Origin: Proteromonas lacertae
Lineage: Eukaryota
Length of the DNA: 64,000 bases
Direction: 5' to 3'
Assembly (NCBI GenBank): GCA_002245135.1
Contig: NGBS01001180.1
Span: 1-64,000 of the forward strand
The translations under genes were made by a program, and so were the position numbers. Of this stretch, positions 1 through 44,271 are shown piece by piece; positions within the stretch are counted from its first letter, which is position 1; every line of letters begins with the position of its first letter. The notes under the pieces were generated by a model that worked only from the letters and a program-made list of their open reading frames with translations, did not search any database and was not told the DNA's origin.

Positions 1-58
1 AAACGACCTATATAAAACTTTTAACTTATCTTTCAGAGAATCACAAAAGCTAATTATA

Positions 59-877
59 TCATAATTTGCATTGTTTATTATTTACATTATTATCATTGCT
101 ATTATTTCCATTGTTGTTATTATTGTTATTATCATTACTTCCATTGTCTGCATTTACTAATACTCCTCTTACCATATTATCATGTCTATTTTGTATAACA
201 TTTTCCGCTCTTATTTCAGCTGCACTATTATAATGTTCATTATTCATTATGTTAAAATCATTTTCTGGTTCTGGATGTCTTTCATCAATTTCATAATGTG
301 TTTTTTTAATTCTTCTATTTTCTAGTTGTGTAACACCTATTCTCTCTTTTGGGTGTAAAACAACAAATGGATTTCTTTGTAATATAAAATCAGATGCCAT
401 ACACAATTTATCAATACCATCTGCTATACGAGTTTTAAATATGCCACATTCTCTTGCATTAGCAGAGTTTTCATTTCCTGTTAATTTTGGATTATAAGCT
501 TCTAATGGTTTACCATGCGCAAAAGGACCTGTTACAAATAAATTCTTACACCAATTAAACATTTTCATATGTTCATCATATAAATTATATATTCTATTAA
601 ACTCATGATTTGGCCAACCTATTGGAATAAGTCTATATTGAATAATTAATGCTTTGTTAAATCTTTTCACTTCTTGATCCACATAATTATTTAAATCATC
701 TTCACTTATATTTTGAAATGGTATGACTTGATTCCTTCTATGTCTTCTTCTATGTCTTATTCTGCTCATATCAATAGGTACATTGTCTTCATTTTCTTCA
801 TCTTCATATTCATCATCATCTGTGGGTCCATCTTCTTCATCATCATTTGAATTGTTAACTTGAGGTTGCGGTTGCAT
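59..877 (-). CDS. Hypothetical protein, probably viral (acidic N-terminus, Arg/His-rich patch, Asn-rich tail)
   Basis: Intronless 272-aa ORF transcribed divergently from the capsid genes, 79 bp away; no recognised domain. Confidence 0.6.
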   Translation of the reverse strand: MQPQPQVNNSNDDEEDGPTDDDEYEDEENEDNVPIDMSRIRHRRRHRRNQVIPFQNISEDDLNNYVDQEVKRFNKALIIQYRLIPIGWPNHEFNRIYNLYDEHMKMFNWCKNLFVTGPFAHGKPLEAYNPKLTGNENSANARECGIFKTRIADGIDKLCMASDFILQRNPFVVLHPKERIGVTQLENRRIKKTHYEIDERHPEPENDFNIMNNEHYNSAAEIRAENVIQNRHDNMVRGVLVNADNGSNDNNNNNNNGNNSNDNNVNNKQCKL

Positions 878-956
878 ATATATATAACAATATATAAATT
901 AAAGAATAATTCAAATAAAATTATATTTTAATATTTCTCAACAATTATAAAACATA

Positions 957-1928
957 ATGCAACCAAAAGATAGTAACAACATATTAGCTAATAGAAGAAC
1001 ATTGTTCTTAACAACATCAGACTATAATGAAAAATTATCTAATAAATGGGTTAGATGTATTAATACTCCAACTATTACTGAAAAATATCAATATATGAGT
1101 TTAATTACTGCAGTTATTCCAAATAACTTCTATACAGTACAAGATGAAGTAAATGATCATATTCTCTTTAATTTCACTTACTACGAATGCATAAATCCAG
1201 ATAAAACAAATCCAGCAGAATGGGAAAAACCTGAGAATCAGCTTGGACCTTATTATAAAACTATTGATGCTAAAATACCTCAAAGAAATTATACTGGTAA
1301 AGAATTATTAGAATTTTTTAGTAATAAGTTACTATCGTTAAGTTTTGCAGAAATAGCAGGTGCAGCAGGACCATTGCCAGATGAAGATCTTTCACAAAAC
1401 TATCCGTTTCGTAAAATAGATGATCAAACAGATATACTTCAATTTAGTGAAAGTTCAGAAAATAGATTACACTTAAAATTCAAATACTTAACTCATTTTG
1501 GTAGATTATATTTCACAGATTTTAGCATTGAATTCCCTAACTTAGTTTATAAGTTATATGGTGTAGATGAGATGAACAAAAAGTTAGATATTTATCATAC
1601 AGCAGCTCCAATTGAAGCATTTTTTAATAATATTGATATAGAATATGACAAAATATTGCCTAATCAACCGTCTTTAATTTGGGTGTCATTCATACAAATT
1701 AGATGTGATTGGGTTAATAGTGGTGAGAATTCAATGGTTTTAGCTAACATACCTGTGAAAGATCTTAATACTAACTACACCACATTCACTAATCCACAAA
1801 TTGAATGGACAGCTAAGAAGATGCAATATCACGAATATCAACGAATGACTATATCAGTCACACAACAAGATGGTTATGCAATTTATTTAAAAAACTTACC
1901 TATTTATTTTGAGATCATTTTGTATTAA
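957..1928 (+). CDS. PLV/virophage-type minor capsid (penton) protein
   Basis: Motifs SLITAVIPNNFYTV, IPQRNYTGKEL and C-terminal ISVTQQDGYAIYLKNLPIYFEI match the single-jelly-roll penton pattern (IPNSFYNI...IPxGNY...LTDxxGxxIDLxG). Lies directly upstream of the MCP and ATPase genes. Confidence 0.8.
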   Translation: MQPKDSNNILANRRTLFLTTSDYNEKLSNKWVRCINTPTITEKYQYMSLITAVIPNNFYTVQDEVNDHILFNFTYYECINPDKTNPAEWEKPENQLGPYYKTIDAKIPQRNYTGKELLEFFSNKLLSLSFAEIAGAAGPLPDEDLSQNYPFRKIDDQTDILQFSESSENRLHLKFKYLTHFGRLYFTDFSIEFPNLVYKLYGVDEMNKKLDIYHTAAPIEAFFNNIDIEYDKILPNQPSLIWVSFIQIRCDWVNSGENSMVLANIPVKDLNTNYTTFTNPQIEWTAKKMQYHEYQRMTISVTQQDGYAIYLKNLPIYFEIILY

Positions 1929-1981
1929 TAAATTTCTTGCTATTTTTAAGTATTTTTTAATCTTTTAAAATAACATAAATT

Positions 1982-3404
1982 ATGTCAATCACTGCTATAC
2001 CTAATTCACAAAAGCATGAAAGCATTGTGCCAGCTTACATACCAATTTACAACCATATTTTAGTTACTCCAAACCAAAGCAGGAATGAGACTGTTTTATC
2101 TTTAAATTCAAACAGTGATGCTATTACATTTGAAATATCTGGTGATAATTGTGTTAACTTATCAAAAAGCTATTTTGAATTCATATTAGATTATACTACA
2201 GGTCAAACTAGAGCTCATGCTGCTGCAGATTCAGGTAATTGGGATATGCCTTTTGTACCTAAAAGAGATACTAGTGCAAATAATTTAGATAAACTAACAT
2301 TGAAGAATACTATGAATTTTGGTACATTAAAAGTATACAACAAAACAGGAACTTTGCTATGTGATTTGGATACTAGTTATAATGAATATAGAGATTTAGC
2401 TCATGAAATTGCAAATCAATTTCCTTATGATTTAAAAGAACCAGATTATTACAAGAAAATATTTGATGGTTTAGGATTTAATACTGCAAATCAAAAAATA
2501 GGGTGAAAATTTATTATGTCATTCAGCTAATACATTAAATCCAAGTGGAGGTGTTCAAAATTATTATGTAATGCAAAATGGTATGACAGATACATTACAT
2601 GGTCAAATACTGTGTAGATTTCATTTTGCAGACATATACAATACTATTTTAGCTTTGAAGAATGATATTTATTTTGGTGAAGTAATATACATACAATTCA
2701 CATTTGCACCTATAATGAATTGGGTTCATCTAAATGATGGAGATAAATATATAAACCAATGGCAAGCATTTTTAGGAATGAAAATAGTTAATCCTCATCT
2801 TTATGTTTGTTATAACAAAGATCCAACTTGCAATGCCAATACCATCAATTATTCAACTCATCATCCTATTGACTTTACTGATTTTAACATAGTTCAAATA
2901 ACTAAAGATCCTATTCCAGGTAATAGTACTTTTAACTATAACTTCAGTATTAATAGCAGTATAGGAAGTTATGTTAAGTTTATATTATACAGAGCATACA
3001 TAAATGATGCTTATATAAGAACTATAGTTCCTTTTGATAAAGAAGAAGATAGAATTAGATGGCAAATTAATGATTTTGTCTATACTCCTGATTATTTATA
3101 TCCTGCAAAATATCAAACTTGGGAATATATGAGAAATATTATTCAAAATACATTATATGAAAAATGTTCAGCATATTCATTCCCTTATAGATTCTTTGAT
3201 GTATTAAATTTCAGTACTGATCGATTAACTGAATTAAAATTAAGAGCTGGTAAAGACTTAGCAAGTGATTTAAAAATTACATTAGATTGCTCAAATCATG
3301 ATTTTGATACTGCAAAAAATACTTATACAATTCATCATAAATTCTATATTATTACAGGTAAACAATTAGTTATTGGACCAAGAGGTGTTGAGAAAGTAGT
3401 ATAA
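1982..3404 (+). pseudogene. PLV-type double-jelly-roll major capsid protein, split by a +1 frameshift (~473 aa if repaired)
   Basis: N-terminal PNQ...ITFEISGDNCVNLSKSYFEF is typical of PLV MCP. The downstream frame is open from 2502 (GENLLCHS...), so removing one G of GGG at 2501-2503 joins ORFs 1982-2506 and 2571-3404. Confidence 0.78.
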
Positions 3405-3481
3405 ATAACACTTTATTATTGACTTCTATTTTTATTTTTTGATTTCTCACTACATAATATATATATATATATATATACACT

Positions 3482-4243
3482 ATGTTTAAATTTGAAAAAA
3501 TAAATAATATACAAATTGAACCTGTTGATGGTGGTGAGTCATTTGATCCTAAGAAAATTCTGGGATATGATTACTTTAATGAGCCTTTCTGCAATATATT
3601 TATTGTAGCTCGTAAGAACAGTGGGAAAACTACTTTGATATACAATATATTAAGACATATTATAGATCCAAAATATAAGAAAAAACAACATGTACATTTT
3701 TTCGTAGGTACAATTAAACAAGATAGGATATATGATTCAATTAAAGAGTTATTAGATTATAATGAAATTAGTTATGATGAAAACGATTCATTATTTGAAC
3801 CTTACTCAGGAGATAATTTAGTAGAGAAGTTAATGAAATCAATTGATGATACAAACAAAGATAATTTTGAGTATGCAGAACATATTATAATATTTGATGA
3901 TCTTAGTTTAGAGTTGAAAACAGCTAATATCATACCAGTATTAATGAAAGAAAATAGACATTTAAAATCAAAAATTATAATTAGTAGTCAATATATTACT
4001 GATATAGTACCTTCAGCAAGATCACAAGTAGATTATTGTTTAACATTTTATGGATTGAGTAATAGAAATTTGTTTGACTTATACAACTCATTGAATATAT
4101 GGATACCTGAATATGAAACATTTAAAGAGTTATATTTAGCTGTTACTAAGCCACAATATAACTTCTTATATATTGATAATGTTAAAAAAGTGTTTAGAGC
4201 TAACTTCAATATTTTGATTGAAGATCATTCTGAAGTTTCATGA
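3482..4243 (+). CDS. A32-like (FtsK/HerA superfamily) genome-packaging ATPase
   Basis: Walker A ARKNSGKT, Walker B IIIFDDL, and the A32 signature NRHLKSKIIISSQY followed by PSARSQVDY. Confidence 0.92.
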   Translation: MFKFEKINNIQIEPVDGGESFDPKKILGYDYFNEPFCNIFIVARKNSGKTTLIYNILRHIIDPKYKKKQHVHFFVGTIKQDRIYDSIKELLDYNEISYDENDSLFEPYSGDNLVEKLMKSIDDTNKDNFEYAEHIIIFDDLSLELKTANIIPVLMKENRHLKSKIIISSQYITDIVPSARSQVDYCLTFYGLSNRNLFDLYNSLNIWIPEYETFKELYLAVTKPQYNFLYIDNVKKVFRANFNILIEDHSEVS

Positions 4244-4287
4244 TGTTTTTATTGATTTTGTTATTTTATTGTTTATTAATACAAAAA

Positions 4288-5169
4288 ATGTTTATTGGGG
4301 AACGAAATACTTCAGATATAAATATTGATACAGATAAGCTTGCTAAAGATATAGCTGACAAAATAAATATACAACCTACTGATCCTGATACTATTGTTAA
4401 ACCCATCAATGATGAAATTGAAAAATGTAATATTAAAATAAGTGGATGTGATAATAAAATTACTAGTACATTAAGTGCAGTTACAACATTATCATATAAT
4501 AATGAAAATAATGAATATATTAGTAAAGAGACACTTGGAACATATTATTATCAAAATGATTATGAAGATTTTATGAAGAACAAAAGTGGTAAGTTTATGT
4601 ATTCTATCTATAAACATTGCAAAACTATGAATATAATATTTCCTACTATATTAGGTAAGTATTATACTACATGGACTGTATCGTTAAAAGAAGATTTAGG
4701 TAATAATAAGTATAATGAACAAATAATTGATCGTATACCTATTACAGTTACAATCTTCCCAAATTTTATGAGAATTAAAACATTAAAATTATGTCAAATA
4801 TTTAGTGGTAATAGACAACTTCGTAAAATTCGTTTACGTTTAGATAATGATTCTCTTTTATATCCTAAATATAGTTCAGATGATAAATTCTATTCATTTT
4901 TTGATCATTTATATAATCAATACCCTAATGATGGATCTAATGCAGTACCATTCCCTATAGAGATTCATAACAATAGTGTTACCCCACCTCAAAAATTATC
5001 TTGTAATTTTTATTTATATCATTTTAATGAAAATAAAGTTCTATTATGGTTAGAAAGTGATGGATGTGAAGGTGATCAGTATCAAGCAATATTACCTCAA
5101 ACAATTGATACAAAGATTATAGATTTTGGTTTAAGACATGTTTACCCTAATGATCAATCTTTATTATAG
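4288..5169 (+). CDS. Hypothetical viral protein, possibly fibre/spike-like
   Basis: Intronless ORF following the ATPase, with a short heptad-like N-terminal helix and a beta-rich C-terminus. Likely start is ATG 4288 (the track starts at 4240). Confidence 0.5.
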   Translation: MFIGERNTSDINIDTDKLAKDIADKINIQPTDPDTIVKPINDEIEKCNIKISGCDNKITSTLSAVTTLSYNNENNEYISKETLGTYYYQNDYEDFMKNKSGKFMYSIYKHCKTMNIIFPTILGKYYTTWTVSLKEDLGNNKYNEQIIDRIPITVTIFPNFMRIKTLKLCQIFSGNRQLRKIRLRLDNDSLLYPKYSSDDKFYSFFDHLYNQYPNDGSNAVPFPIEIHNNSVTPPQKLSCNFYLYHFNENKVLLWLESDGCEGDQYQAILPQTIDTKIIDFGLRHVYPNDQSLL

Positions 5170-5453
5170 TTTTAATATGAATTTATTATGTTTATTATTA
5201 TTTTTATTATTTTTTATTATATTATGTGATTTTTATTAAATTACGCATATTTTTAAACTCTGTTCCAAATCATTTTAAAATAAAGATTCGTTTTAAAATT
5301 TAGACTATGTTTATCGTAGTTTGATCATTATTTCCTTTAACTTCTTCTTGTACTTCTTCTTCTTCCTCATCATCACTATCATCAAATATATAATTCTTCT
5401 TTACATAATGTTTCAACATAGGATTCTTCTTCAAATGAACACTTCCCATTCCT

Positions 5454-5777
5454 TCAGGTAGTGTTAAACTCAATATACTTATCGAACACTGCAAAATAAT
5501 GTCTATTTAATCCTCTTGGTTTTACTGATGGTTTAATATCGAAAAGCATCATGTAATATCTCTTATCACTATACTTTGTCCACATCTTTTGATGGCAAAT
5601 AGCGCAGAATTCATTATAAGACTTTATCTCTTCCTTAGGTAATGGACTATCTAAAACTGCACTGATATTATGGTTAAAATATAAGTAAAACTTACATGTT
5701 CCACATATACACTTGTCCAAATAATCTTCATTATTTCTAAATGAACAAAAGAAAGCAAAGTTTACTGAAGCACACAT
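5454..5777 (-). CDS. Small Cys-rich (CxCxxC...CxxC) hypothetical protein
   Basis: 107-aa ORF containing CICGTC and CAICH. It overlaps an acidic 64-aa ORF (5300-5494) that may be its frameshifted continuation. Confidence 0.45.
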   Translation of the reverse strand: MCASVNFAFFCSFRNNEDYLDKCICGTCKFYLYFNHNISAVLDSPLPKEEIKSYNEFCAICHQKMWTKYSDKRYYMMLFDIKPSVKPRGLNRHYFAVFDKYIEFNTT

Positions 5778-6406
5778 ATTTTATATTTTTTGATAAAAAC
5801 GGTTTTTCTAAAATGCCAGGAAAATCAAAACTGTTTCTTTTTTCTGTTTATAACAACAGTTTCTCGTCAGAATTTCGATTTATTAAAAAATATAGAATAC
5901 TGTAGATAATTCTTTAAATATATATTTTTGACACTATTTAAATTCTTTTGAATGTTTTTAACTACACTATATAAATCCATAAATAATTTGATAAATGAAA
6001 AAAATAACTAAAAAAAGTAAGAACGCATTCTGTAGCTTGGCCACCACACTATTTAATCACTAAGTCCTAGCTAGGCTACACAGGACACGCTACTTACTTA
6101 CATAGAAATACATTTCTTATTATATAAAGTAGCTACCCTGCCGGGGTAGAACAGGTAGCTACCTATCTATTTATTACACTTTATTTCTACTATCCTACGC
6201 TAAAAACTATTGAAAACATAAAAATAAAATTTGATCCATAAATTTATTCACACACTAAAATATATACACAATTTTAAATTCATCACTTGCTCCAGTATAA
6301 CCCGTACCAAAAACTAATTCACACTCAAATCGCTTATTCTTATCTGTAGAAGGCACCTAAGAATAGTCTGGTACGGTTTACCCATATACAGTGATATTCT
6401 TACGGT

Positions 6407-7414
6407 TATACATATATCCAAAATTTGAAGTTTGCAGTTGAACATGGCTATAAAGTGGGTAAAGTGTACAGAATAATGAGATTTACTGAAGGTCTATATA
6501 TGGGTAAATATATTAATACTATGGTACAAAAAAGAGTCCAAGCTAAGGAAAACAATCAAAATACTACTGCAGACTATATAAAGAAATTAATGAATAGCTT
6601 ATACGGTAAATTTATGGAGCGTGTTGAAAAGAGAAGTAACATTTCTTTAATTACTAATGAAGACCAAATGATTAATGCTGCAAGTGATCCATGGTTTAAA
6701 GACTTTATCATTATTGAAGGTGATTTAAGAATTGCACATTTTCATAAGAAGCTATATGAAATTAATAAACCTATACAAATTGGAATGGTTATCTTAGCAC
6801 TGTCTAAACTCAAAATGCAAAAATATTGGTATGATGTATTAGATAAAAAATATGGTTCTGATAAGCTAACGCTATGTATGACTGATACTGATAGTATACT
6901 TTTCTCAGTTGAAACTAATGATATTTTTAAAGACTTAGAGGATCCTATCTTTAATAATTGGATTGATGGAAGTAATCTGAAAAATCCTTATTTAGAAAAT
7001 TATAAGTTAGATATACATAGAGCTGTTCATCCAGGTACACTAAATCGATTAAAATTTGAAGAGCAGGATAAGAATAATAAAAACCTATATGTTATAACAA
7101 AGTTTATAGGATTAAAATCAAAGTGTTATATATACGAAAAGGAGAAAGTGAATGATGATTCTGATAATAATACTAATACTGACAATCGTTGTAAAGGTAT
7201 TAATGTGAAAGTTTCTAGAAAAATAACTTATGATATATACAATGATTTTGTTGAAGGTGCTAGTAAAAGTCAAAAATATGAAGTATGTCAAATCAAATCA
7301 ATACATCATAATGTTTATACAACAGTACAAAACAAAACTGGCTTAACCTATTATGATGATAAAAGATATTTTTTTGATAAATACAATACATTGCCATATG
7401 GATATAAAAAATAA
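6407..7414 (+). pseudogene. Protein-primed family B DNA polymerase (Polinton-type), C-terminal fragment
   Basis: Motif B KKLMNSLYGKF, motif C MTDTDS, GLKSKCY, KGI and terminal DDKRY...TLPYGY. Exonuclease domain and motif A are absent; there is an in-frame stop at 6392. Confidence 0.93.
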
Positions 7415-7447
7415 TAATTAATTAATACTTATATATTTATTTTTCTT

Positions 7448-9375
7448 TTAAAATACTGACACCTCTTCATATTGAGGTACAAATTGAGGTACATTTGCAG
7501 TTACTATAAATTTTGAGCCATATTGTGGTGTTTGTTGACTATATTTTCTTGCTTTTTGTGGTATAACATGAAAAGTGTTATCGTATGGATTAATATATTC
7601 ATCACTAAACTTTTCAGTTTTTATAGAATCTGCCATTCTATTTAATCTTGTTTTCACTGAATTTATAATATTTTCTCTCACATTTTCTCTTCTTCTCATT
7701 CTATTAGTAGTTCTATTCATATCTAAATCTTTATTTACTGTACTACGTTCTATATTTTTTATTATTGCCTTACGTCTCTCTATAAACTTCCTCACTTGAT
7801 TGTAAGTTAAAGTATTTGGATCTAATTTTACAGGTTCTTCTGGTCTATTACTATATTTTTCATTATATTCTTTCAAATTATCAAAGTATTTGTTTATTCT
7901 TTTCAGTTTATCATCAATACTTTCTTTATTTGGCGGAAGGTTAATTTCATCTGATTCTTCATTAATAGTTGGAACAATATTATTAGGTCGCTGTAATAAG
8001 TCAGGATTGACTATATCTGTATTAACTGGATTTGGTATTGTTAAATCTAAAGTTGGTTCATTGTATATTAAATCATTCATCATGGGATATTGTACAAGTC
8101 CTAAATCATTATAAGAAGGTTTATTTGCATTATTCATTACACTTGCTAACTGAGTAGCATATACTGATTTTTCTTCTTCCATTCGTTTTAATATTTGTTG
8201 CATGTTATTTTGATATGTTAAATCATTTCCTTTAAGAGCTTTGATTGCTTCATTCTTTATGTATTCTATTTCATTTTGTTGATTATTTAATGACTATTCG
8301 CCTACTAATAAAGTTTCATTTAATTTCTTTTGTAATAATGCATTTTCTTCTACAGCTGAATTGTATAGTTGTTGTTGTTCTTGCAGTTTTTGTACATATT
8401 TATTTATTTCTACTTGAATCTTCATTTGCATATCCTCTAATTGTGTTTTATCTTTATCTCTAGTATTTTGCAATTCCTCAGATATAGCATTATAGCTTTC
8501 TTGAAGACTAGTTAAATCTTTTTCTGCTTGTTCATGATTCATTTTTAATGATAACATTTCATTTTCTCTTATTGACAATTTATCATTTATTGTATTATAT
8601 TGAATTAAATTTTGTTCTTTTTCTCTTTGTAATTCATTTATTCTGCTATTTAAATTTGTTACATTTTGTTGTACTTCTGCTTTACTGTATGGGTAATCCT
8701 CTTTATATGTATTATAATCACTTACAATTTTATTTTTGATTTCTTCTAAAGCTTTTAATTGTTCATCTTTTATATTTAAACTCTGTATATATTGTGTTTT
8801 GAGATTTTCTGCATTATTTAATGCTAAATTTAATTCTCTTTTATTTTGATTATTTGCATTTTTCAACTCCTCATTCTGTTGTTTTAATTCTTTAATTTGT
8901 TTTTCATATAAACTTTTTAATTCTTGATAACTTTCTTCATTATATTTCTGAGCATATAATTTATGCTTACTTTTAAATTCTTCAAGAATATTTTCTTTAT
9001 TGTTTAATTGAATCTTGTTACTTTCAAATAATTTATTAATTTCTTCTTTTTGTTGTTTTAAACGTTCTACCATATCCTTATAAGAAGTATTTTCAGTAAC
9101 TAAATCATCTCTTTTATTTCTTAGAGTTTTTAAATTATTCTCCAAAGCTATTTTTTATTCTTTCAGCTTCATCTGCTTTTAATTTAACCATATTATCATA
9201 ATTCTGTTGTTGTGCTGCTTTATCATCAGCATGTTCTTTATTAAACTTTTTTATCTCTGCTGCAGTATCTGCTTTAAATTTATTACAAGCAGCTAATGCT
9301 TCATCTTTTTCTTTTAATATATCAGTTATCATATTTCTATATTTATCAGCCTCCAGTTGGATTTCTAAACAATAA
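7448..9375 (-). pseudogene. Long coiled-coil protein gene, probably viral, disrupted by a frameshift (~9150) and an in-frame TAG (8294-8296)
   Basis: ORFs 8294-9145 and 7448-8203 share a frame with only one TAG between them. ORF 9135-9332 joins if one A is removed from the A6 run near 9151-9156. Confidence 0.7.
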
Positions 9376-12300
9376 ATCTATCATTTCATTACATTCTTTG
9401 CATGTATGAATTGTTAATACTTTATTACATACAATTTTTCTTACTGTATCAGAAATAAATCGAAGATTATTAGATTTAGTAATATCATTTTCATCTGTTT
9501 CATATATAAGTATATTCTGATATTTTTCCTTTGATATAGATGATATATTTATGCCTTTTATCATATTTTCAATCATTTCCTTGTTTACTTCATCTATTTG
9601 ACTTTCACACATTTTTAAATCATAGTAATATTTTCCAATTACACCTCCATAATATTCATAGTTGTCAAGATATTTATCTAAAATGTCTTTTAATTCTTTA
9701 TCATCATTTTCATTTCTATTCATAGGATTAGCTGGTATTCTTTGTATTTCACTATATTTAAAAAATGGCTTATCAGGTTTGATTAGAGTAGGATCATTCA
9801 ATTCTTTTACCTTTTCGATTTCTTCTTTGGTAAATGGAGGTATATACATCACCAGTGGGCATCTTTTACTTTGAAATGTTTTATACTTTTTTTCACATGG
9901 ATTAGCTAATAATATTATCATTTTTGCATCAGCAAAATCATCTTCTCCAATAATAACTCCATCAACAACAACAATGTATGGATAATTAAATCCATAATCA
10001 AAACAATCATGATTACTAATATCAGATTGTCCATCTATACTTCTAAAATCTATTCTAATATATTTATTATTTTCATGAATTTTGTTTATAATAATTTTAG
10101 CTAATTCTGATTTACCAATTTTTTCTTGACCAAATATCAAAAAGTTTCTTTGATTTTCATGATTCATATCTAAATCATCAGGATAAATAAATTTCAACAT
10201 ATCATTAAAGCACTTTCTCATCAATAATAATTCCTCACCATTATTATATACATCAAAATCTTGTTGTTGTTGTTGTTGCTGTTGTTGTTGTTGTTGCTGC
10301 TGCTGTTGATATTGTTGTTGTAATACTGGAAGCGGAATGTTAAATCTTTGATCATAATCATATACTCTCTCTTGTTTTATTAAACAATACTTAAAGTCAC
10401 CACTTTTAATCTCACTATATTCCTATTTTTATTATAAATATATTATATATTCATACTCTTATAGATTTTTCCATTCTTTCTCTATCTTCAGGAGTTATTC
10501 TATTTATATCAAAGTTTTCATCATCTAATAATACTTTTATAAATACTCCATTCATTATCAAATCAAAGAAATTATTTTCGTCCAATATATAATAAACAAA
10601 ATGTGATGCATTTGGAGGATAATGAACATACATCTGTTTTTCATAGTTTAATTTGAAATTTGGATCACTGTCAATTGGAGTTATCAACTCAATCATTTCA
10701 GTGCTTAATTCATATGCAATTATTTGTTTTAATGCCATTTTTCTAGTATATTTATCATCATCAATTGAATTATACTTATCTTTTACATTCTCATACTCTG
10801 TCTCATCTTTAGGTGGATAGAATTTAAAAACAATGTATTTTTCTACTTCTTCTGAAATGAATTTTAATTTTTCTTTTGGTTTTAAAAGAAAATGTTTTAA
10901 ACCATCATCCCATTCTGATTCTAAATCATATTTTAATATAATATTGGATAAATCATTATTTAACAAATTTTCCATCTTCATATACTTTTTTAAAAATTCA
11001 TTATAACCTGTTGTTCCTACTACACTGTCTATTAACTGTTGATAATACGTCCAATAATCTCTACCATAATTTTTATTATATAAATAATCGTAATAGATTT
11101 GTCTAGGTATATTACCATACTTTTTGCATATTCCTTTAAATTTGTTTAAATCACTAATGTTTATATTAATGCAATATGAAAACCAGTCTATTATTTCTCT
11201 ATCATTTAAAGAATCAAAATATAGTTGTTTACTAGTTTTTGGATTTGTATATTTATCGTTATTATTATGATCAGGTGAACTTATTGAAATTATTATGTTA
11301 TCATTGCCAAATTTACCATTGAAAGTGTCAACTATTACTATCGAATTATTAATATCACGTTCTTTTATATCACTTTTTCTCAGACTATTATTTTTAAATT
11401 CATATATTTTCCTATCACCAATATTTTCATATCTCTTTCCTTTAACTACATAAATATCTTTAATGGTATTATTATTTTTCCATATATCATCTAAAATATA
11501 ATAATTGAATCCCAATTTTACCATTTCATCATAATTTGGTGGTAATGAACCTTCAAAATCTTCTATTTTATCTAATGAACTTTCCATATTTCTCTTTAAT
11601 TCATTGTATTTATTTTTTATTGCTTCCTTTTCTTTTAAATACTTTTTAATTCTCTTTTCAATCATTTCTATTGAAATATTTCTTTTTTTAATCTCATTAA
11701 TTCTTTGCACTATAATTGATGATAGATAATATGCATTGACGAATCTTCCATATTGCTTAACTAGTTTATTATGAAGTATTCTCTTAAAATTAATTATCTC
11801 ACTTACTTCAATTACTTCATCTACATTCACAATATCATTCTTTGAACCTCTTATTTCTCTCTCTATCTTTTCAATATTTTCGTAGCATCTGTTTCTTACT
11901 TCTTTTTCATCATTTTCTTTTGAGAAATCATAATTTCTTCTTCTTTTAAATATTGTGAATGAATATATACTTCCAGTTTGTGTATAAAAATTCCTACTTA
12001 TATCATCATAGATAGTATCTTTTAGTTGTTTATAAAAGAATTTGTTTATTGTTTCTTTGTATACTTCAATCCTCTTTTTATTTCTTTTTATTTCTTTTTC
12101 AAGATTTTCTATTTCCTGATTAATAAAACATTTTCTTTGTTTCTCTTCTTGGTGTAATTCACTCAACCATTTTATATTATTTTCTCTTTCTACAATTAAC
12201 TCTTTTTTCCTCAGTAAATCTTTTTCATCTTTACCAAAATTGTGAGATAAATTATTCTTTAGAAAGAATAGTAAAACATAAATAAACGATGTTTTACCTA

Positions 12301-13066
12301 TACCTGGCTGACCTGTGATTATTATTCTAGATTTCTTTTTTAATAGCATGATTTTACATATATTTCGAAACATATCATAATAACAATCTCTAATGTAGAT
12401 TCTCTTCAATGGGAATTGAAACACATTGACATTTTGATCTGTATATTTTAGATATACCTTTTTTTCACCATCAATAGTAGTATAATCTACAGCTGTTAAA
12501 TTGTTAACAATTTTAACGAAATTATCTTCTTCATCTACTTTTCGTTTTTTTCTTTCACCACCAATATCATCTCCACGTCTTTTAATATTATCCTTTTCTA
12601 TAACTACTATTTCATCATTCTTCTCAAATAAAATGAATAAAGGATACATTGCATTTATGCACTGTAAATCTCTCAACATATATATAACCTTATCATGTCT
12701 GCTAATTGTCATTGTATTGCTATTTAGATCGTATTTTATATCATATATTGCACCTAATTGTAATTCTTTTACATGTACTTCAACTACATCATTACTATTT
12801 GCCTGTAGCGCTACTCCCCTGGTTAATATCACCATTTTATTACAGACTGCACCACTAATAACTTTTGAGTATCCTATACCAAGATTGTTAGCAACTTTCC
12901 GAATTTGGATTCTCATTGTATATACTTGATTTGCAGTTGAATATTTTTGGTATATACCTAATTTCAATGAATCATTTTCACTTCTAAATGAATCTTCATA
13001 TATCTTTTTTACTAAGAAACCATATCTGCAAAAATTATATGGCAAAATATTAATAACAGAGCTCAT
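9346..13066 (-). CDS. SPRY-like domain plus tandem Crinkler/RHS-like P-loop NTPase protein (~1228 aa; exons 13066-10457 and 10422-9346)
   Basis: A 34-nt phase-0 GT-AG intron at 10423-10456 joins the two ORFs. Module 1: IYIRDCY, IIITGQPGIGKTSF, IVIVD, ISSPD, YGNIPR, FISEEV. Module 2: FLIFGQEKIGKS, IVVVDG, MYIPPFTKEEI, YYGGVIG, FISDTV. A polyQ linker lies between them. Confidence 0.75.
10261..10320 (-). repeat. CAA/CAG trinucleotide tract encoding polyQ (19 Q in 20 codons)
   Basis: Directly visible; in frame within exon 2 of the tandem NTPase gene. Confidence 0.9.
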
Positions 13067-14003
13067 TTATCTAATTAATAAAAATTGTTAATAATAAATA
13101 CCGTACTTTTACTAATAACAGAGATATAGATAATTATAAATTTGAAAGAATAACCAATCAAATCAAGCCAACAAATAACCAATTAAAATTCGTAAATTCT
13201 ATATTTTGCATGTCATTTTTATAGTGATGTAGAAAGAAACATCATCTATCAACTTATAGAATTGATTTTGGTGATTATAAATTCTCGTTTCATATGATAT
13301 TTAAGTAAGTAATAGAATTGAGAGTGATTTAGATAATTACTCATTTTTGATAATAATTATATAAAATTTTAACGATATTTTGTTTTTTTCTACATATCTC
13401 AACAACATTTGTTTTTCATACTGACATAATGACTAAAATATTACTTCGAAATCTCTTGTTTACATTTCATTCAACTGTACGGATATTACATTATTTGGCA
13501 TTTTCTGAAGGTGAAGGGCAATTATATATTATTCCTTTCTTATTGAGTTGAATATTCGTTGAATTTACTCCATTCACTTCACCTATTATCAGTTTCTGAA
13601 GTAGATTTCACTTATTCTTAGAACATTATCGAAACTAAAATAATCATTTACTATATTCACTCCAATTACCATTTTCATTATTCTACCTACATATAGAAAT
13701 AAAATAAAAACTATATACTTCATAACATATTAAACATTTACTCATTTTTTAAATGAGCTATAAAATAGAAATACTTGTAGAGAATGTTATGTAACAAAGA
13801 AAAATGGTTGAAGTTAACATTATACTTGATTTTCAAATAATCAGTAACACTCTCATTTTTCAAATACATCTTTTTTAAAAATACAGGTGTATTAAATTGT
13901 ATTTTATTGTATTTAATATAAAAACATTATAACAATATGAAAACAACGAATTAAGAAATAATAAAAACTGTTAATAACAATACCACCAAAAACAATAAAA
14001 TTT

Positions 14004-17000
14004 TTACTTTTTACTTTTCTTTGATTGATATTTTGCATCTTTTCCTTTTCTCTTCATTGGTTTGTTATTATCAGGTGCTTGAACATGAACTTTAGGAGCA
14101 GCAGTCTTAATAGATACAACACCAGTTTCAAAACTACTTTTAATACCTTTTTCCCAGTCATTTTTACTACCTTTCAATTCATATTCACTCAAATTCATTT
14201 GTTGTAATATTTTATGATTCATTGTTGTTTCTTCTTTATCTAATTCATTATCAAGTGATTCAGATAATGGCTTCATATCTTTTGTCTTATTTTCACTATC
14301 AATTTGTGTTTTTTCTATCTCTTCAATATAATTCTTTCGACTTATTGCATAGAGAGCTGTTACAAATTTTCTGATACTTTTATTGAACATTGCTAATATT
14401 TGTGATACAGGTAAACCGTATTCTAATGATAAATCATCTACATTTTTATGCTGTAAACCTTGACCAACTAAAATAGATAATTGTAAGTAAGAAAAATGGC
14501 CAATTTCAGGAATCATTCCAAGAAAATATAATCTGGTCAAAGTTGGTAATAAATCAACAATCATATGATAATCAACAAGATTTTTACTATAAGATTCTAA
14601 TCTTTTGATATCATGTAAAGAAAAGAACAAATTCAAATTTTGATTATTCAATTGAATCAGATTCTTTTGTTTTTCAAATGTTTCTAAATCTGAAACATTC
14701 TTTCTCAAAGATTCATCTAATAAAAGTGTTGATAATTCAGTTGAAAATTCTTTACATTCATATGATAACAATGACAAAAATCTCTTCTGAAAATCAGCTA
14801 CAAATGGCATTAACCATCCTTTTTGAGGCATATTCGGTATAACGGTTGAAGGGTCATTCACATCTAACGGTTTAATCATAATACAAGAATGTTCACCAGT
14901 TAGTTCATTTGGAGTTAAACGAATATAAACTGGACTATATCCACCTTTCACTGCCCAAAATTTGAATAATTGTTGAGTTAAACCAAATGCAACTCCTAGC
15001 CAATGCAATTTCTCTGGAGGACGATCTTTTAATGCAATTAATAATGGTGGTAGCTTTGATCTTGGTTTTAATTCTTCAGTTGTTAATATTGAAGTTTCTG
15101 GAAGTGGTTCTGGTTTTATAGTTTCAATATATTCATCACCATCATTACCATCTAAAATATCAAATCCTCTTATTTCACCTTGATAGTATTTTTGTAATAG
15201 TTCTAATGCTCTAGCACCATATCCTTGATTAATAGCATCAGGATGAGTAGCTATTCTTACAATTCTTGCACCTGAAAGTGTTGGAAAATCATTATCTTGA
15301 AATTGTTGAGATACAGTCCATGGTATTAAATCACCAGCAGATTTCTCACCTTTTAATAATTGTGACCTTACTGTATCAGCATTTATTTCACCTTCTAAAC
15401 ATACTTGTATTACACATAATATATCTGGTAATAAATTATCACTATTTTTACTACTAGAATCATTATTTATATTTCCTAATAATGCAAATAATCTATGTGC
15501 TGGAGCATCACTCAATAATTGTAAATCATTAGGAGAATTCTTATAATGAGATGATACATATAGACTCATCATTTTATATAACAATTCTTCAGATAGTTTA
15601 TGATAAGAGAATAATGTATCACGATTGATATAATATAATTCACATTGTGATGGATGAGGTAAACCTCTAGTTAATCTATATGCTTTACTAGTTGCATCTA
15701 AACATAATAAATTATTCAGCCATTTTTCTATTGGATCATTTTGGTTGTATCTAATTGGTTCTTCTAATGTAATTTCTTTGAATATTCTAGAATCTGATCC
15801 TTGATTCATTCTTAATTGATTTATTAATTTCAATGATAATGCTCTTCCTGTTCCTTCATATCCAGTTACTGTACTACTTAAAAATACTAAGTATGGACCA
15901 ATTAATTTCTTTACCATTGGTAATGGAATTGCAGCTGCTTCATCTACAACAACAAGCTCGGCTTGAGATAATTTTTCATAATCAGATGGTATAATATATT
16001 GTATAGTTTGTCTATGTGAATGATAGATATTAATTCGAACTATTGCATTATGATAATCAGGATTAGTTGATTGAATTACTTCATAATCTGTATGCTCTTT
16101 ATAACATAATACATTAAACCCTTCCAATATAAATTGAAATACGGTGTTGAGGTTTTCGGGTGTAGGAGCTGTAACGAATATATTACTATAACCATGAGCA
16201 ACTGCTCCTGCAATTGATAAACCTAATGATGCTGATTTACCTCTACCTCTTGCTGCTGTTAATGCTACAGTCGATCTTAATGTCTTTTCAGCTATTGCTT
16301 CAATGAATAACAATAGGGCTTTTGCTTGATCTACTGTTTTGGTTAAATTTACTAATACTTCTAAATGGTCTGATCCTTTGAGTGATTGTTTGAGTTTCTC
16401 TAATTCCAGTTGTTGTGGTGTCTTAGTGGTTGGATCGATTTGTACTGGGATTATATGAGTTATTGATTTGGAGAGTGGCAAGATTGTTAATTCATCGTAA
16501 AATATTATAAATTAAAGAAATAAACTATAATAATATATATATATATATATATATATCAGATTGTGTTCGGTACTCTATTAAATTCATCATATTATTTATT
16601 ATATAAATAATAAAAACATCAAGAGCCGAGAGTAATAATCACTTATATATATATATAATAAAAATGTAAAATAAGTAAAAATTAAAAAAGATATATCTAA
16701 AATAACACATCCTTCACAGTTAGATAGTGATAATATAAATCTTTCGTTAAATCTTGCTACAACATCATTATGTGCTTCTGTTCTAAATCTAGAGTGAGTA
16801 TCCATTGTCATTGTGTATAACTGACGTAGTGACGTCATTGTACGCAATAATAACACAACCATTCCTCCTCCTTCTACAGTTTCTATTGTTCTACAGAGTA
16901 AATTTGGTGTTAATGCTTCGAAATCTTGTAAGATACACATACCGTATGTTTGACCTAATATTTTATGTGATTCTTTGTAATAGCACCAACGAATATCAGT

Positions 17001-17361
17001 GGAAGATATGAATAAATCAAATGGATTATCATTTTCTGGATCATACAAACCACGACTAATCATCTTTTTGATTTGCTTCATTCTCTTCTTTTTATGACTA
17101 TTCAATATATATAATAATTATAATAATTATAAATACGTAGAAAAACCTAATTCCTTCTTGTAACACCATAATACTGATGGTCTAGCTTTAACTTGTGACT
17201 TACTGAGAATGTAGTGAAGATTAACAATCTAAGAATGAAGAATTAAATGATACTTGATCTTTGCCTCTATCTCCAATGATTACAAACAAGCTACGAGTGT
17301 TTTGTTTAATTGAATTTTCAATCAAAGTACGAATTCGTTGATCAACTTTCTTTTGTGGCAT
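14004..17361 (-). CDS. NAT10: RNA cytidine acetyltransferase NAT10/Kre33 (4 exons; introns 17229-17253, 17098-17136, 16497-16694)
   Basis: MPQKKVDQRIRTLIEN...VIIGDRGKDQ, VLWCYKKELGFS, LQDFEALTPNLLCRTIETVEGGG, TAARGRGKSA, DEAAAIP, HYKNSPNDLQLLSDAPAH, RIVRIATHP. Confidence 0.98.
16497..16694 (-). other. Putative U12-type (minor spliceosome) AT-AC intron, 198 nt
   Basis: 5' end ATATCTTT and 3' end TTTTAC, with branch-like TTTCTTTAAT 14 nt upstream of the 3' end. Removal restores conserved ILD|DELTILP. Confidence 0.85.
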
Positions 17362-17441
17362 TTTTTGCAAAATGAAAATGAAAGAAAGCTTGAATGATAG
17401 TTTGAAATTTAATTTTGAAAACTGAAAAAAAAAACAAAAAA
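17362..17441. promoter_or_regulatory. 80-bp bidirectional promoter region
   Basis: Divergent ATGs at 17361 (-) and 17442 (+). Confidence 0.6.
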
Positions 17442-18874
17442 ATGCCTTTTGGTGATGGTTTAATAAAACGTGCTCCTAGTAGACCACAAGAGTCTAAAAA
17501 TGATGATTTCGAAGATGATGATTTTGATTCTCCTGGTAGAAAGTCATCTTCTTCATCTTCTGATATAAAGTATACAAATTTAAATTCTTATGTGATAGTG
17601 ATGATTTTGGAGATTCTAAAGTAGATGATGGTACTTCCAAACTAAAATCGTCAAAATCTTCTTCAAAAATAGATGATACATTCAATGAATCTCAACATAG
17701 TCACCATTCAACACATTCTTATCATAGTCATAGTAAAAGTCCAAATCCAGCTAGTCATTCTCGATCACAAAGTCGTAAATCACATATGAGTGAATCAAAA
17801 TTTGAAGAAAGTAAAGATGATGATGTTCCAAGTTATATGTCCAAACGTGCAAAACTAGTTAGTCGAATAACAGAATATAAAACCATCTTAACTGAAGAAC
17901 AAAAGAAAGACTTAGAAAATAACAATTTCTTGAATAAAAATGATAAATGGAAATATAATTTATTAACTAAAACAGCTGAAAAACAGAATGGTAGTGGTAG
18001 TTTAACAGCTAGATCCGTAAATAGAAGTCAATCAGCAAGACCATTATCAGCAAGATCATCTATAGCAGGAGGAGGATCAACAACAACTACTACTACAACT
18101 AAAAAACTATCAACTCAAGAATATGTTGAAAAACTAGCCGTTCCACACAAAATAGTGAATAATAAGAAAGATACATTGGATTTATATGAAAAAGTGAAAA
18201 AAGTGAAATGTACTTGTGCTAAAGGTCCTTGTAATCCATTAAAACCTGGTCCAGGATGTGCTCGAGCTAAGTTATTGTATGCTACTGAAAGTGAAATACG
18301 TGAATGTACATTTAAGCCAAAGATTACAAAATATAAGACTAATGAGGGTGAAAGTAAAACAGGTTTTGTAGAAAGAATGGATAATGACACACGAACAGCA
18401 AGAGCTGTATATATATTATATAAATTATATTGATATCTAATAATTTAGAAAAAATCAGATGCAATTGGTGAAAAAGAGTATAATATGAGATTAGATATAT
18501 TAACTTGTCCTGTATGTGGAGGTAAACAGAGTTATAAGAATTATATAGAAGGTAAAGACAAATGTCCAACTTGTATGAAGAAATACAAACCAAAGAAAGC
18601 ATGGGGATTTATAGCAACTTCATTTTTGAATAGAAATGTTGATTATTTAAAAAAAAAGAGAAATCCAGAGATGAAAAAGAAAGAAATTGACTGGGAAAGT
18701 AGAGTAGTGTATTATTGTAAAAAATGTAAGAATGTACAGACGAAAGATGAATATATGAATGATATTAAGATATGTCCAAGAGATGGATATGTGTATCGTC
18801 CAAAATATGCCACTGATTATGATCCTGAAAAGAAAGATAAAAATGCAGAAGAGACTAAAATGAATATTACATAA
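17442..18874 (+). CDS. Hypothetical protein with Ser/His-rich N-terminus, ECTFKPKI motif and two C-terminal CxxC zinc-ribbon-like units (introns 17570-17598, 18407-18448)
   Basis: Two short GT-AG introns join three ORFs in frame; CPVC/CPTC and CKKC/CPRD pairs. Confidence 0.75.
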
Positions 18875-19016: not shown

Positions 19017-22000
19017 ATGAATAAATTAAATATTAAGCGTCTCCTAATCAGTATGATTGTAAATTATAATATTTTATAGCATTTTTATTGCTTCTATTAT
19101 GCGTTGAAGGTAGTAGGAAGGAGATAGAAGCAATGAATGCCAAAATTTCGACTAAAAGTGGATTAAAGAGAAATCTTAAGACAACTGGTCAAGGTACTGA
19201 AACAGTTGAATTGTCAGATGGAAAAGCAGCTCATGGCAGTTGGAATGTGTTAGTTGATGGATTAAAATGTGACAATCTGGATGAACATACTACAGATGGT
19301 CATTGTAGAGTTACAGGTGATACTGAAGAAATATGGGTTACTAAGAACTCATTGAAGGTGAAATACATTCATAAAGGACAAACTATAGTAAATACACCAA
19401 GTCCTGCTAAAGGAATTGAAATGACAGTAGTTTATTGGGGAACTACAAAGAAATCTTTAGTAACTTCGAGTGGGACATTTTCTCAGTTTACACCTTCACC
19501 TGTAAATTCAAAGTATTGGAAAAGTAATAGTGTTAATGGCAAATATGATCCAGATTATACAGGATTAGAAGGAAATGATTTGAATAATAATTATATGAAG
19601 AATTATTACAATTGTTCTGATTTACCTGAATTTGCCTCATTAAATTGGATAAAAGAATATTGTCCAAATGGTTATGATGGTGTATTAATAGCTATTGATA
19701 AAATTACAACTGTGGAAAGTGTTTCTAGTAATTTCTATTACTTTACATTTGAAAATGATGAAAGTCTCGCTTATATTGCTGATGTTCAAGGAAATGAAAT
19801 TAAGAGTTTTTTCATTGAAAAGGTATTAAAAGTTGAAGATATATCTAATATTATTAATTCAATGGATATTAGAACACATCATATTAGCAATTATACATTA
19901 ATCACTAATAATTTGATATTATCAAACTGTTCAGCTGCTCATATATTCACTAATGACTCTATTAATTTTACATATAAATATGTCTATCAAGGAGGTATAA
20001 AGACAGATGATAATGGATTATATACCAATTATACAATTGATGTTAGTTGTGGTAATATTGAATCATTATCTGGTGTTTATATGGATAGTAATTTTACTGG
20101 AGCTTATGATGGTATTAAAGAAAAAGATCATTGTTTAGATTTACCACCATTATCAGCTGATGAAATACTCTCATTTACATGGTTAAAGATAAACTGTAAT
20201 AGTTTTTATAAGACTTTACTACTTGAAGATCCAATGAAAGATAGCTTAAATGGTGTAGGTAGTTTCTTGGAGAAAGATAATGATGATATATATACAGCAT
20301 CATTTGCATTACGAAGATATAATTCAGAAAGACCTCATGAATATGCAAATGAAAAGAATCCATTCACTAACGATGATGATTTTAAAGAGAGTGGTGAATA
20401 TGGTATTGGTTTAATAAACACTCAAACTAGTTACAAAATAGTATATGGATTTGACCAATTAGAATGTAGTGGAACTAGTAGAGAATTCGCTTCCTTAGGA
20501 TCAGCTGATGGTGTAATTGGAGTAGATAATACCAATAATAACATCATGTACTTAACAGATAAAGATAAAGTTATCTATGGCAATACAAACAATGGTGCAA
20601 ATTCAAATTATGTATATAAAGTATACCAAACTGTAGAATCAAGAGTAGATATTGACAACTTATATACATCTTACACTTTGAATGAAGTTAATGATGATTA
20701 TAGTGGATTTGACTGTAGTTATGATGTCAATGTAAACTTCTTTAAGAATGATCAAAATGACAGTTGTAGATGTGAATCTGAATTTATATCATTCAATTGG
20801 GTTAAAACTCATTGTTCAAATATTGATATAATTAATGATATTAAAAAACCTCTAGAATTATCTGCAAATTACACACGAGCTGTTAATAACAATCAAACTG
20901 TCTATATATATGATTATAATACTAATGAAGTTAGAAGAAACGAATATGCAATGAATTTAGAAGATCAAAATCATTTATCCCCTAAGATGATGATTGATAC
21001 ACATGAAATCAGTAAAGAGAAAGCATTGATGAAGAAAATAGATCAATTTACAACTTACTATGTAAATAGTGAATTAGGATTTTATGTATTAGATAATGTT
21101 GTTGATCATAACAATATAAAGAGAAGAATAAAGTATAATATGGTACATCACGATTATACAATCAATGATCCAGTTTTAAACAAACAATCAAACTATTCTG
21201 AATTTATTGTTAAAGATTTAAATAATGAAGAATCTGGAATATTCATTAATGATGAATTGAAGCAATTATTAGCTAATTGTACTGAAATACCTGCAGTTTA
21301 TATTGATGACGATGGAGTATTACCTTACAAATGGATTAAAGAGAATTGTAGAAGTAAACAAGATATATTAATCAGAGAATTGAATGAAAATGAAAAGAAA
21401 ATATTTGTTGATAAATTGGCAATTAGATCATATGATGCTACAGTTGCACATCAATATAACAATATATTAAACCAATTAGTTAATACACAAGATGATTATA
21501 TATTAGTTGATAAGATGATAATGAAACAAGCTTTGAATGTATTTGATAATGATGATAAAGTTCCAAGACCAATTAATACTGATGTAAATGGTGCAAGTAG
21601 TAGTTGGAATGATGAAAATGATTTAAAAGAAGGAAATATTATTACATTATATTATACTAATGATAATGTTACATTTACATACTTTAATAAGAAACAAACA
21701 ACAAAAGTTAAAGTATTTTTACCAGCAAATAAAATCAATAAAAATGTAGTATGTAGTAATGAATATGGAAATGGAAAATGTAATAAATTTACAACAGATG
21801 TAGCTTCAGATGAAAAATTAACATTTACTGATATGATTTATGATTATAGTGGATATGAAGGAGAAGCAAATCGAATTTACTTTAAAGAAAACTATAAGAA
21901 TTGTCCATCCTTACCCGAATTTGCTTCATTCCGATGGTTACAAGTTAACTGTAGAGAATCAATTGAAAAGATGGTAACTCCATTCTTAAATAGATTTGTA

Positions 22001-23803: not shown

Positions 23804-23986
23804 ATAGAAGATATTATTATTTTAGACAGAATTCTCTCATATATATTTGTTTGTTTGGGAAATAGGATACTATATAGTTGCTTTAATAAATATCAAAATT
23901 CACAAAAATAGAGTAATAGTTGAAGATTAAGAAAAATAGAAAAAAACTACTCAAACCATATTCAAGCTGCATTAACAACAGTTAAG

Positions 23987-28805: not shown

Positions 28806-28991
28806 TAGAATACAATAAATACTTAAATATTAATAAATCATACTATAAACAAAGTCAGTTTACTTCACTTATATTTTGTTTGTATTGATCTTTTCAAAGA
28901 AAATAGAAATTGGTGTAACCAAAATTTAATGAAAATTTTGAAAAACCATTTTGACAGTTTAAATTTGAATTTTCAAATTCAATATTCTCAA

Positions 28992-44178: not shown

Positions 44179-44271
44179 AAGGGTCTTCTAATTGAAATCT
44201 AAATATTTTAATCATCTTAGCTAATGTATTTTAGTCTCTAGTAGTGAATGAAACTTATCAAAATAGTGTGT

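Follow-up and report, generated by a model that had tools for sequence, protein, structure and literature searches.

We analysed a stretch of 64,000 nucleotides from Proteromonas lacertae (NCBI GenBank assembly GCA_002245135.1, contig NGBS01001180.1, positions 1 to 64,000 of the forward strand), referred to below as the window, which carries near its left end what is very likely the remnant of an integrated small DNA virus related to Polinton-like viruses (PLVs). Three neighbouring genes on the plus strand (957-4243), separated by spacers of 53-77 nt, encode a penton-like protein, a major capsid protein (MCP) that is split between two reading frames and a packaging ATPase. The C-terminal part of a family B DNA polymerase of the protein-primed type (pPolB) lies on the same strand, 1.2 kb beyond this capsid module. 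Between the ATPase gene and the polymerase stump there are a 309-aa open reading frame (ORF), a Cys-rich ORF on the minus strand and about 600 nt that have no coding potential. The coordinates of all these features are collected in the table.

The initial annotation had proposed an endogenous PLV that carries the morphogenesis genes shared by Polintons, PLVs and virophages, and the predicted double jelly-roll MCP, the A32-like ATPase and the penton-like candidate agree with that proposal. It had also listed the penton, MCP, ATPase and polymerase genes as consecutive. This holds for the first three, but pPolB is a partial gene and is not adjacent to them, since the 309-aa ORF, the Cys-rich ORF and the non-coding DNA lie in between. 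In the rest of the span suggested initially, 7448-9350, the minus-strand ORFs show no viral signature in Pfam and PHROG scans. The element may, on the other side, continue to the left past position 1 of the window.

Table. Coordinates of the viral element and of the other annotated features of the window (nt; aa, amino acids; HMM, hidden Markov model)
Feature	Position	Strand	Description
272-aa ORF	59-877	-	Divergent from the penton-like gene, 80 nt from its start; no Pfam, PHROG or PDB match
Penton-like minor capsid protein candidate	957-1928	+	323 aa; uninterrupted ORF directly upstream of the MCP gene
MCP, N-terminal part	1982-2506	+	174 aa; 51% identity to P0001 residues 3-168; family HMM E 5.5e-48
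MCP, frame-change interval	2499-2506	+	Upstream frame runs to a stop at 2504-2506; in the downstream frame the last stop ends at 2501
MCP, C-terminal part	2502-3404	+	300 aa between stop codons, or 277 aa if begun at the ATG at 2571; family HMM E 1.4e-103
Genome-packaging ATPase, A32/FtsK type	3482-4243	+	253 aa; Pfam Pox_A32
309-aa ORF	4240-5169	+	Overlaps the end of the ATPase ORF by 4 nt; hydrophobic N-terminus
Cys-rich 108-aa ORF, then acidic 68-aa ORF in another frame	5303-5780	-	Stop-to-stop ORFs
Non-coding spacer	5781-6394	.	No ORF above 59 aa, no Pfam match; G+C-richer palindromic patches
pPolB, C-terminal part	6395-7414	+	DNA_pol_B_2
NAT10 / RNA cytidine acetyltransferase gene	14004-17475	-	Pfam TmcA_N, helicase, GNAT and tRNA-binding domains; E down to 3e-94
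AT3 acyltransferase-SGNH fusions (three)	36873-38708, 41850-43610, 51771-53525		Within the glycan cluster
Second capsid relic	41478-41619	-	About 50 aa; flanked by an acyltransferase gene and by a hAT fragment
Other genes of the glycan cluster	34007-57912		FkbM/RfbT-like methyltransferase, GT2, GT31 galactosyltransferase, FUT8-like, DUF229

Capsid, packaging and polymerase genes

The MCP gene is the best characterized part of the element. Its two pieces are collinear with P0001, an intact 495-aa relative, and no other interruption is present, which points to a single frame change. In a three-frame translation the repaired 473-aa ORF of the initial annotation is indeed one MCP gene with one change of frame, in the interval given in the table. 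The C-terminal part is 58-59% identical to residues 200-495 of P0001 and 79% identical to another relative, P0005 (268 columns). Judged by sequence, the capsid family of the element is without a name in the libraries searched, and so are its 243 relatives. The window MCP matches nothing in Pfam or PHROG. A word-indexed search gave eight relatives of P0001. Among 1.84 billion representative proteins, 243 were matched by a family profile at E<=0.001, of which 38 reached E<=1e-10 and 12 reached E<=1e-30; most of the 243 have a length of 400-520 aa. When ten relatives were looked up, one turned out to be named "hypothetical protein" and the others had no name. Proteins with near-full-length matches were assembled into a 46-row alignment of the family. 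None of the 46 matches a capsid family of Pfam (a single stray Pfam match was seen), and a sequence search of the PDB with the 46-row profile returned nothing.

Because the MCP gene of the window is broken and was left unjoined, the fold was modelled on P0001. The AlphaFold2 model based on the 46-row alignment, with a predicted local distance difference test score (pLDDT) of 81 and a predicted template-modelling score (pTM) of 0.83, is a double jelly roll. A Foldseek search of the PDB with this model produced 155 matches at E<=0.001, and among the matches listed all are double jelly-roll capsid or scaffold proteins. The SGIV MCP is at the top (E 1.6e-12), mavirus (5e-10) and Sputnik (8e-9) are also found, and the other listed matches are PBCV-1, EhV-201, Faustovirus, vaccinia D13, PRD1 P3 and ASFV p72. 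Structural alignment with VIA-align gave the highest Z score, 23.8, for a PBCV-1 paralog (379 residues aligned, 6.6 Å), followed by 22.8 for both SGIV (385 aligned, 5.2 Å) and Faustovirus (350 aligned, 3.5 Å), 18.9 for Sputnik, 18.0 for mavirus, 15.8 for PRD1 P3 and 14.9 for the adenovirus hexon. In BFVD there were 104 Foldseek matches at E<=0.001, including MCPs of nucleocytoplasmic large DNA viruses (NCLDVs), the MCP of Qinghai Lake virophage and a protein of TvV-S1. On the evidence of this model, the MCP family has the double jelly-roll fold, as had been anticipated for the 473-aa ORF. The initial annotation had further described the capsid sequences as very divergent. They are so: identity to the structural matches is at most 12% among those listed, and there is no match at the sequence level in Pfam or the PDB.

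A maximum-likelihood tree was computed for 50 MCP rows, namely the 46 aligned proteins, P0005, P0006, P0008 and the C-terminal piece from the window, with about 110 other listed hits excluded. The window MCP is placed beside P0005 inside a clade of 14 rows with support of 100/100, as estimated by a bootstrap that had not fully settled. The branch separating this clade from the other 36 rows has a length of 1.64 changes per site.

A second trace of a related capsid gene is present in the window. The relic at 41478-41619 forms an inverted repeat of 104 nt with positions 2665-2768 in the MCP gene (77% DNA identity), is 68% identical over 37 aa in a tblastn comparison (E 3e-12) and is recognized by the HMM of the 46-row alignment (E 4.6e-4). 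This second capsid relic suggests that the virus family inserted at least twice in the region. The neighbouring hAT fragment (40740-40970, minus strand; E 1.6e-4), 500 nt from the relic, corresponds to part of the dimerisation domain of a hAT transposase.

The protein encoded directly upstream of the MCP gene is probably the penton. It has five homologs of 315-322 aa (E 1e-54 to 1e-119) that align with it from end to end with 70 invariant columns. Since they align over the full length, the 323-aa ORF is considered intact. The confident middle domain of its AlphaFold2 model was compared, without Foldseek, to 48,161 representative PDB chains, and ranks 1-6 were all taken by chains from viral capsids or pentons, namely capsid chains of EhV-201 (Z 5.9), PBCV-1 (5.8) and Sputnik (3.9), the pentons of mavirus (5.1) and FAdV-C4 (8roq_M; 4.6) and an ADDobody derived from adenovirus (5.0). 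Flagellar and ribosomal proteins come next. The ADDobody is made from the crown of the adenovirus penton base. It is unlikely that six viral capsid or penton chains would occupy ranks 1-6 by chance. Consistent with this are two matches to the same stretch of sequence. One of the six family members (P0010) matches Adeno_Penton_B (E 0.0024; 16.9 bits, under the cut-off of 25), and the family profile finds in the PDB the "Penton protein" 8roq_M at E 0.47. An ESM Atlas feature search led to viral clusters at 0.97-0.98, one of which (0.97) has the Sputnik V18/19 domain in 26% of its 61 members. The "penton" of the initial annotation finds concordant, if weak, fold, profile and Atlas matches, but the regions in which the jelly roll is expected are those modelled at low confidence. 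Several results speak against the assignment. The model, calculated from six sequences, has a pLDDT of 56 and is confident only at about residues 65-236, and residues 1-64 and 237-323, which are strongly conserved and would be expected to hold the jelly roll, have pLDDT values <50. All the fold matches have Z <6, a level commonly reached with this tool. The Atlas recognition value is 2047 compared to 2300 usual for known families, and a Foldseek search of BFVD with the 323-aa model gave no match at E<=0.001.

The assignment of the A32 ATPase, also made initially, is upheld by three different matches: Pox_A32 (E 6.4e-5; 23.0 bits, cut-off 22.8), the terminase large subunit of PHROG (E 1.6e-4) and, over residues 39-245, the STIV B204 packaging NTPase in the PDB (E 0.0024). 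The translation contains a GKT P-loop and a hydrophobic-DD motif. No match was obtained when the ATPase was compared to phages by tblastn. The 309-aa ORF whose start overlaps the ATPase stop has no usable match in Pfam, PHROG, Atlas or PDB, and the sole match of the minus-strand ORFs that follow is a weak one to zf-RRPl_C4 (E 0.031).

The polymerase fragment matches DNA_pol_B_2 at profile positions 318-463 of 468 (E 1.2e-11) and a PHROG DNA polymerase (E 7e-6). Its translation contains KLMNSLYG, TDTDS and KSKCY, which we take to be polymerase motifs B, C and KxY. The frame opens at the first position of the fragment, the DNA upstream of it has no polymerase-coding sequence, and the exonuclease part and motif A are missing. 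The non-coding spacer stands in the position at which one would look for the 5' two-thirds of the pPolB gene. Protein-primed PolB sequence is thus present, as initially reported, but as a 5'-truncated remnant instead of a whole gene. A PDB sequence search with the fragment gave nothing usable, and tblastn against phages and plasmids gave no match. The G+C-richer patches of the spacer contain short perfect palindromes (5990-6190, plus strand), for example a hairpin with a 6-bp stem at 6133-6149.

The word ATTTCTCA, present upstream of both the penton-like gene and the ATPase gene, was rejected as a promoter motif, as the window contains 9 occurrences with 9.0 expected. A sigma-70-style promoter scan, irrelevant for a eukaryote, gave fewer matches than shuffles did.

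Probable decay of the element and its chromosomal setting

The element is not intact: pPolB is reduced to its C-terminal part, the MCP gene is frame-broken, and no integrase, protease or terminal inverted repeat (TIR) is seen. The first 14,000 nt of the window were covered by Pfam scans of 12 large ORFs and of 51 others, taken from stop to stop and each 45 aa or longer. Among these ORFs there is no RVE or other integrase, no protease (including the Ulp1 family), and no member of the primase-helicase or methyltransferase families. No convincing TIR is present in 1-14000 either; the inverted repeats found there are short low-complexity stretches (at most 47 nt) whose arms match at 70-90%. When 111 ORFs from the whole window were scanned with Pfam, no further NCLDV hallmark domain, such as that of an NCLDV-type PolB, a D5 primase-helicase or VLTF3, came to light. 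Outside the element, 55 kb away and among decayed frames, there is an Ulp1 fragment (Peptidase_C48; 62229-62555, minus strand; E 6.4e-5, profile positions 84-183 of 217), which could be Polinton-type debris, part of another transposon or a pseudogene of host SENP.

With two-thirds of the polymerase gone and the capsid gene frame-broken, the present copy is most likely a relic. The truncation of the polymerase is no point error, since about 600 nt of non-coding DNA stand in place of the at least roughly 600 codons that would be needed. The three minus-strand ORFs at 8297-10422 abut or slightly overlap one another, encode a P-loop domain with a long coiled coil after it and resemble one frame-split gene, with one of the splits near 9150 at an A-run. 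These splits may reflect either a decayed gene or small assembly indels, and this bears on the capsid frame break as well.

That the DNA of the window is eukaryotic follows from the NAT10 gene, which lies 6.6 kb from the viral element on the same DNA and is interrupted by introns. It scores 795 bits with the human chain 7mq8, 778 with the yeast protein and 753 with that of Chaetomium, values that do not discriminate between host lineages, and its coding sequence is split by at least three short AT-rich introns, two of about 40-50 nt and one of about 200 nt. The Pfam content of the flanking genes (the AT3-SGNH acyltransferases, DUF229, GT31, FUT8-like and FkbM) likewise agrees with more than one lineage. 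The initial annotation had spoken of an intron-rich host. Short introns are indeed present in NAT10, but the statement rests on this one gene, and many of the flanking ORFs are long and uninterrupted. The whole window is AT-rich, with a uniform G+C content of 20-30% per kb, and a tRNA scan and an Rfam scan of it returned nothing.

Several other features of the window deserve mention. An 871-aa P-loop protein of no named family is encoded at 10451-13066 (minus strand), and a paralogous piece 35 kb away (47242-47469, minus strand) covers its residues 49-125 with 34% identity (E 1e-5). Three tandem paralogous giant ORFs that have no Pfam match occupy 19088-33709 on the plus strand (1571 aa, 574+1060 aa and 1439 aa). 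The frames of the middle one are split at 25623-25711, and the first two units show a repeat spacing of about 4.97 kb with a DNA identity of 72-92%. They are followed by a cluster of glycan-modification genes, several of them of bacterial flavour, in which blocks about 4.46 kb apart are duplicated (45748-46511 and 50210-50973). A dispersed repeat resembling a miniature inverted-repeat transposable element (117-170 nt, 92-98% identical, in direct and inverted orientation) is found at 44255-44397, 53655-53823 and 60954-61121.

Origin of the element and alternative explanations

Taken together, our data indicate that a small Polinton-like DNA virus whose capsid was of the double jelly-roll type very likely became integrated at this locus, and that the copy would now be unable to replicate or form particles by itself. 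We file it as a PLV in the broad sense, among the minority that carries pPolB. It is not filed as a Polinton proper because the RVE integrase, Ulp1 protease and TIRs that define one are not found in the visible DNA. The shell of the ancestral virus may have been icosahedral and built from MCP trimers, its vertices being occupied by pentamers of the 323-aa protein. The ATPase would have filled this shell with linear DNA, and the genome would have been copied by pPolB through protein priming. Entry into the chromosome might have been mediated by an integrase that is no longer visible or is located to the left of the window. The present copy would then be a relic, one of at least two that the virus family left in this region.

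A number of observations weigh against this interpretation. The MCP fold is that of a relative 51-59% identical to the protein of the window and not of the window's own gene. The ATPase clears its Pfam cut-off by just 0.2 bits. The ORFs of the element have the same composition as those of the flanks (G+C 24-29% versus 21-31%; G+C at third codon positions 12-19% versus 13-21%), so that there is no compositional sign of foreign origin. The capsid module and the polymerase stump, being separated by non-coding DNA, might come from two different elements. The lone frame change in the MCP gene might stem from faulty assembly. According to the available text of Bellas et al. 2023 (PMC10120064), many of the seeming stops and frameshifts of endogenous PLVs vanish after read correction, and two other genes of the window, the coiled-coil gene and the giant paralog, are also split between frames. 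Finally, no relative was found in IMG/VR by pattern scans with the penton alignment, the MCP alignment, the ATPase, P0027, the pPolB fragment and an outgroup alignment, nor in JGI metagenome contigs with the penton and MCP alignments; as such scans work with short, degenerate patterns, they say little about a true absence. Consequently, the link to free viruses is made through fold and gene set only.

We consider it improbable that the element is still intact and potentially active, or was so until recently, its frame change and truncation being artefacts of assembly such as collapsed near-identical copies or a homopolymer error. The frame change in the MCP gene would fit such an explanation, since it alone interrupts an otherwise open and well-conserved gene, the penton-like and ATPase ORFs are unbroken, and the frame splits of the coiled-coil gene (at the A-run) and the large paralog are of a similar kind; removal of many such defects by read correction in endogenous PLVs is reported in the part of PMC10120064 available to us. 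However, the missing part of the polymerase is replaced by about 600 nt of non-coding DNA of a different make-up, which is no point error, and neither an integrase nor a TIR is seen in 1-14000. We also regard it as very unlikely that the module derives from an endogenous giant virus (Nucleocytoviricota), or from a "dwarf" relative of the Mriyavirus-like sort, instead of from a PLV. The polymerase fragment belongs to the DNA_pol_B_2 family and not to the NCLDV type, no further NCLDV hallmark domain occurs in the 111 ORFs, and the gene arrangement is compact, like that of small viruses. It is true that the MCP model is nearest to NCLDV capsids (Z 20-24 versus 18-19 for Sputnik and mavirus), that the top named BFVD rows are NCLDV MCPs and that the ATPase falls into the poxvirus A32 family, but differences of 4-5 in Z between very distant folds are no phylogeny. 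At the same time, the accessible part of a preprint (Bellas and Sommaruga 2026, 10.64898/2026.06.19.733378) describes some PLV groups as grading into Nucleocytoviricota.

The possibility raised above, that two unrelated mobile elements lie side by side, namely a capsid module (starting at 59 or 957 and ending at 5780) and the stump of a polymerase of a Polinton or a linear-plasmid-like element (6395-7414), is to our mind highly unlikely. The two parts are separated by some 600 nt of non-coding DNA with G+C-richer palindromes, DNA_pol_B_2 also includes organellar and plasmid polymerases by its family description, and the window contains other mobile debris (the hAT fragment, the Ulp1 fragment and repeats of 117-143 nt). 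Yet the parts have the same orientation and are at most 1.2 kb apart, and pPolB together with a morphogenesis module is the standard set of Polintons and pPolB-carrying PLVs, as far as the available text of PMC11161782 and of preprint 10.64898/2026.06.19.733378 goes.

The preferred reading, a decayed PLV in the broad sense, does not introduce a new kind of element, since endogenous relics of PLVs and Polintons have been reported in very large numbers (PMC10120064, in its accessible part). A 2025 preprint puts the tally, in its abstract, at 781,111 viral regions across 7,103 assemblies of eukaryotes. A further decayed copy is therefore unsurprising in itself, and its value is that of a marker: it would mean that a capsid-forming DNA virus, with an MCP family that lies outside Pfam and the PDB at the sequence level, entered an AT-rich host lineage on two or more occasions. 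The alignments and the confident fold model may serve as a seed for finding intact relatives. It is tempting to go further and to regard the capsid clade as an undescribed lineage of pPolB-carrying PLVs, with a capsid nearer to that of giant viruses than to that of virophages, in an AT-rich group of eukaryotes in which such viruses have not been reported. We hold this to be a possible, if rather doubtful, conjecture. If it is true, the lineage would add a link to the proposed continuum between PLVs and Nucleocytoviricota. If the clade is distinct from the described PLV groups, its combination of an NCLDV-like capsid and a protein-primed polymerase would bear on the kinship of PLVs, Polintons and giant viruses.

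Comparison with known virus groups

The morphogenesis module is common to Polintons, PLVs and virophages, as stated in the available parts of PMC11161782 and preprint 10.64898/2026.06.19.733378; PLVs such as TvV-S1/TSV and PgVV/Gezel are placed in the class Aquintoviricetes in what is accessible of the same preprint. Like the element, PLVs have a double jelly-roll MCP, a minor capsid protein (the penton, a candidate here) and an A32-like ATPase, are integrated in eukaryotic genomes, often in several copies per genome, and show neither a capsid maturation protease nor an RVE integrase. PLVs mostly have no pPolB according to the available text of PMC11161782, whereas the element has a remnant of it. 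It also differs from them in that its MCP has no sequence link to a named PLV protein in the libraries searched (TvV-S1 is matched by fold only, at 12% identity) and in that a tyrosine recombinase and a methyltransferase are not seen inside it. With Polintons/Mavericks (Polintoviricetes) the element shares the combination of protein-primed PolB, MCP, minor capsid protein and packaging ATPase, as well as its endogenous state in a eukaryote, but their RVE integrase, Ulp1 protease and TIRs are not found in 1-14000.

Rumen virophage-Polinton hybrids (RVPs; Yutin et al. 2015, PMC4409740) are, like the element, small and combine a Polinton-type pPolB with an MCP and an ATPase. In the part of that article available to us, they are described as carrying a protease and an MCP of the derived virophage type, with no penton gene as neighbour of the MCP gene. 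The element, in contrast, has its penton-like gene directly upstream of the MCP gene, and its MCP model scores higher with NCLDV-type capsids than with Sputnik or mavirus. Virophages themselves were compared by fold alone: the Z scores for Sputnik and mavirus MCPs (18.9 and 18.0) are below the 20-24 of the NCLDV type, and no protease is present in 1-14000. The best fold matches are MCPs of NCLDVs (the PBCV-1 Vp54 family, SGIV and Faustovirus), with Z scores of 22-24 and 350-385 residues aligned. However, MCP identity to them is 6-12%, and the element is a compact module of a few kb beside the remnant of a protein-primed polymerase, with no other hallmark gene of that group. A further likeness is to the ungrouped elements of a Metamonada group with a few members from Evosea, which, as described in the available parts of PMC10120064 and of Bellas and Sommaruga 2026, are likewise endogenous and have very divergent MCPs that are recognized only by structure.

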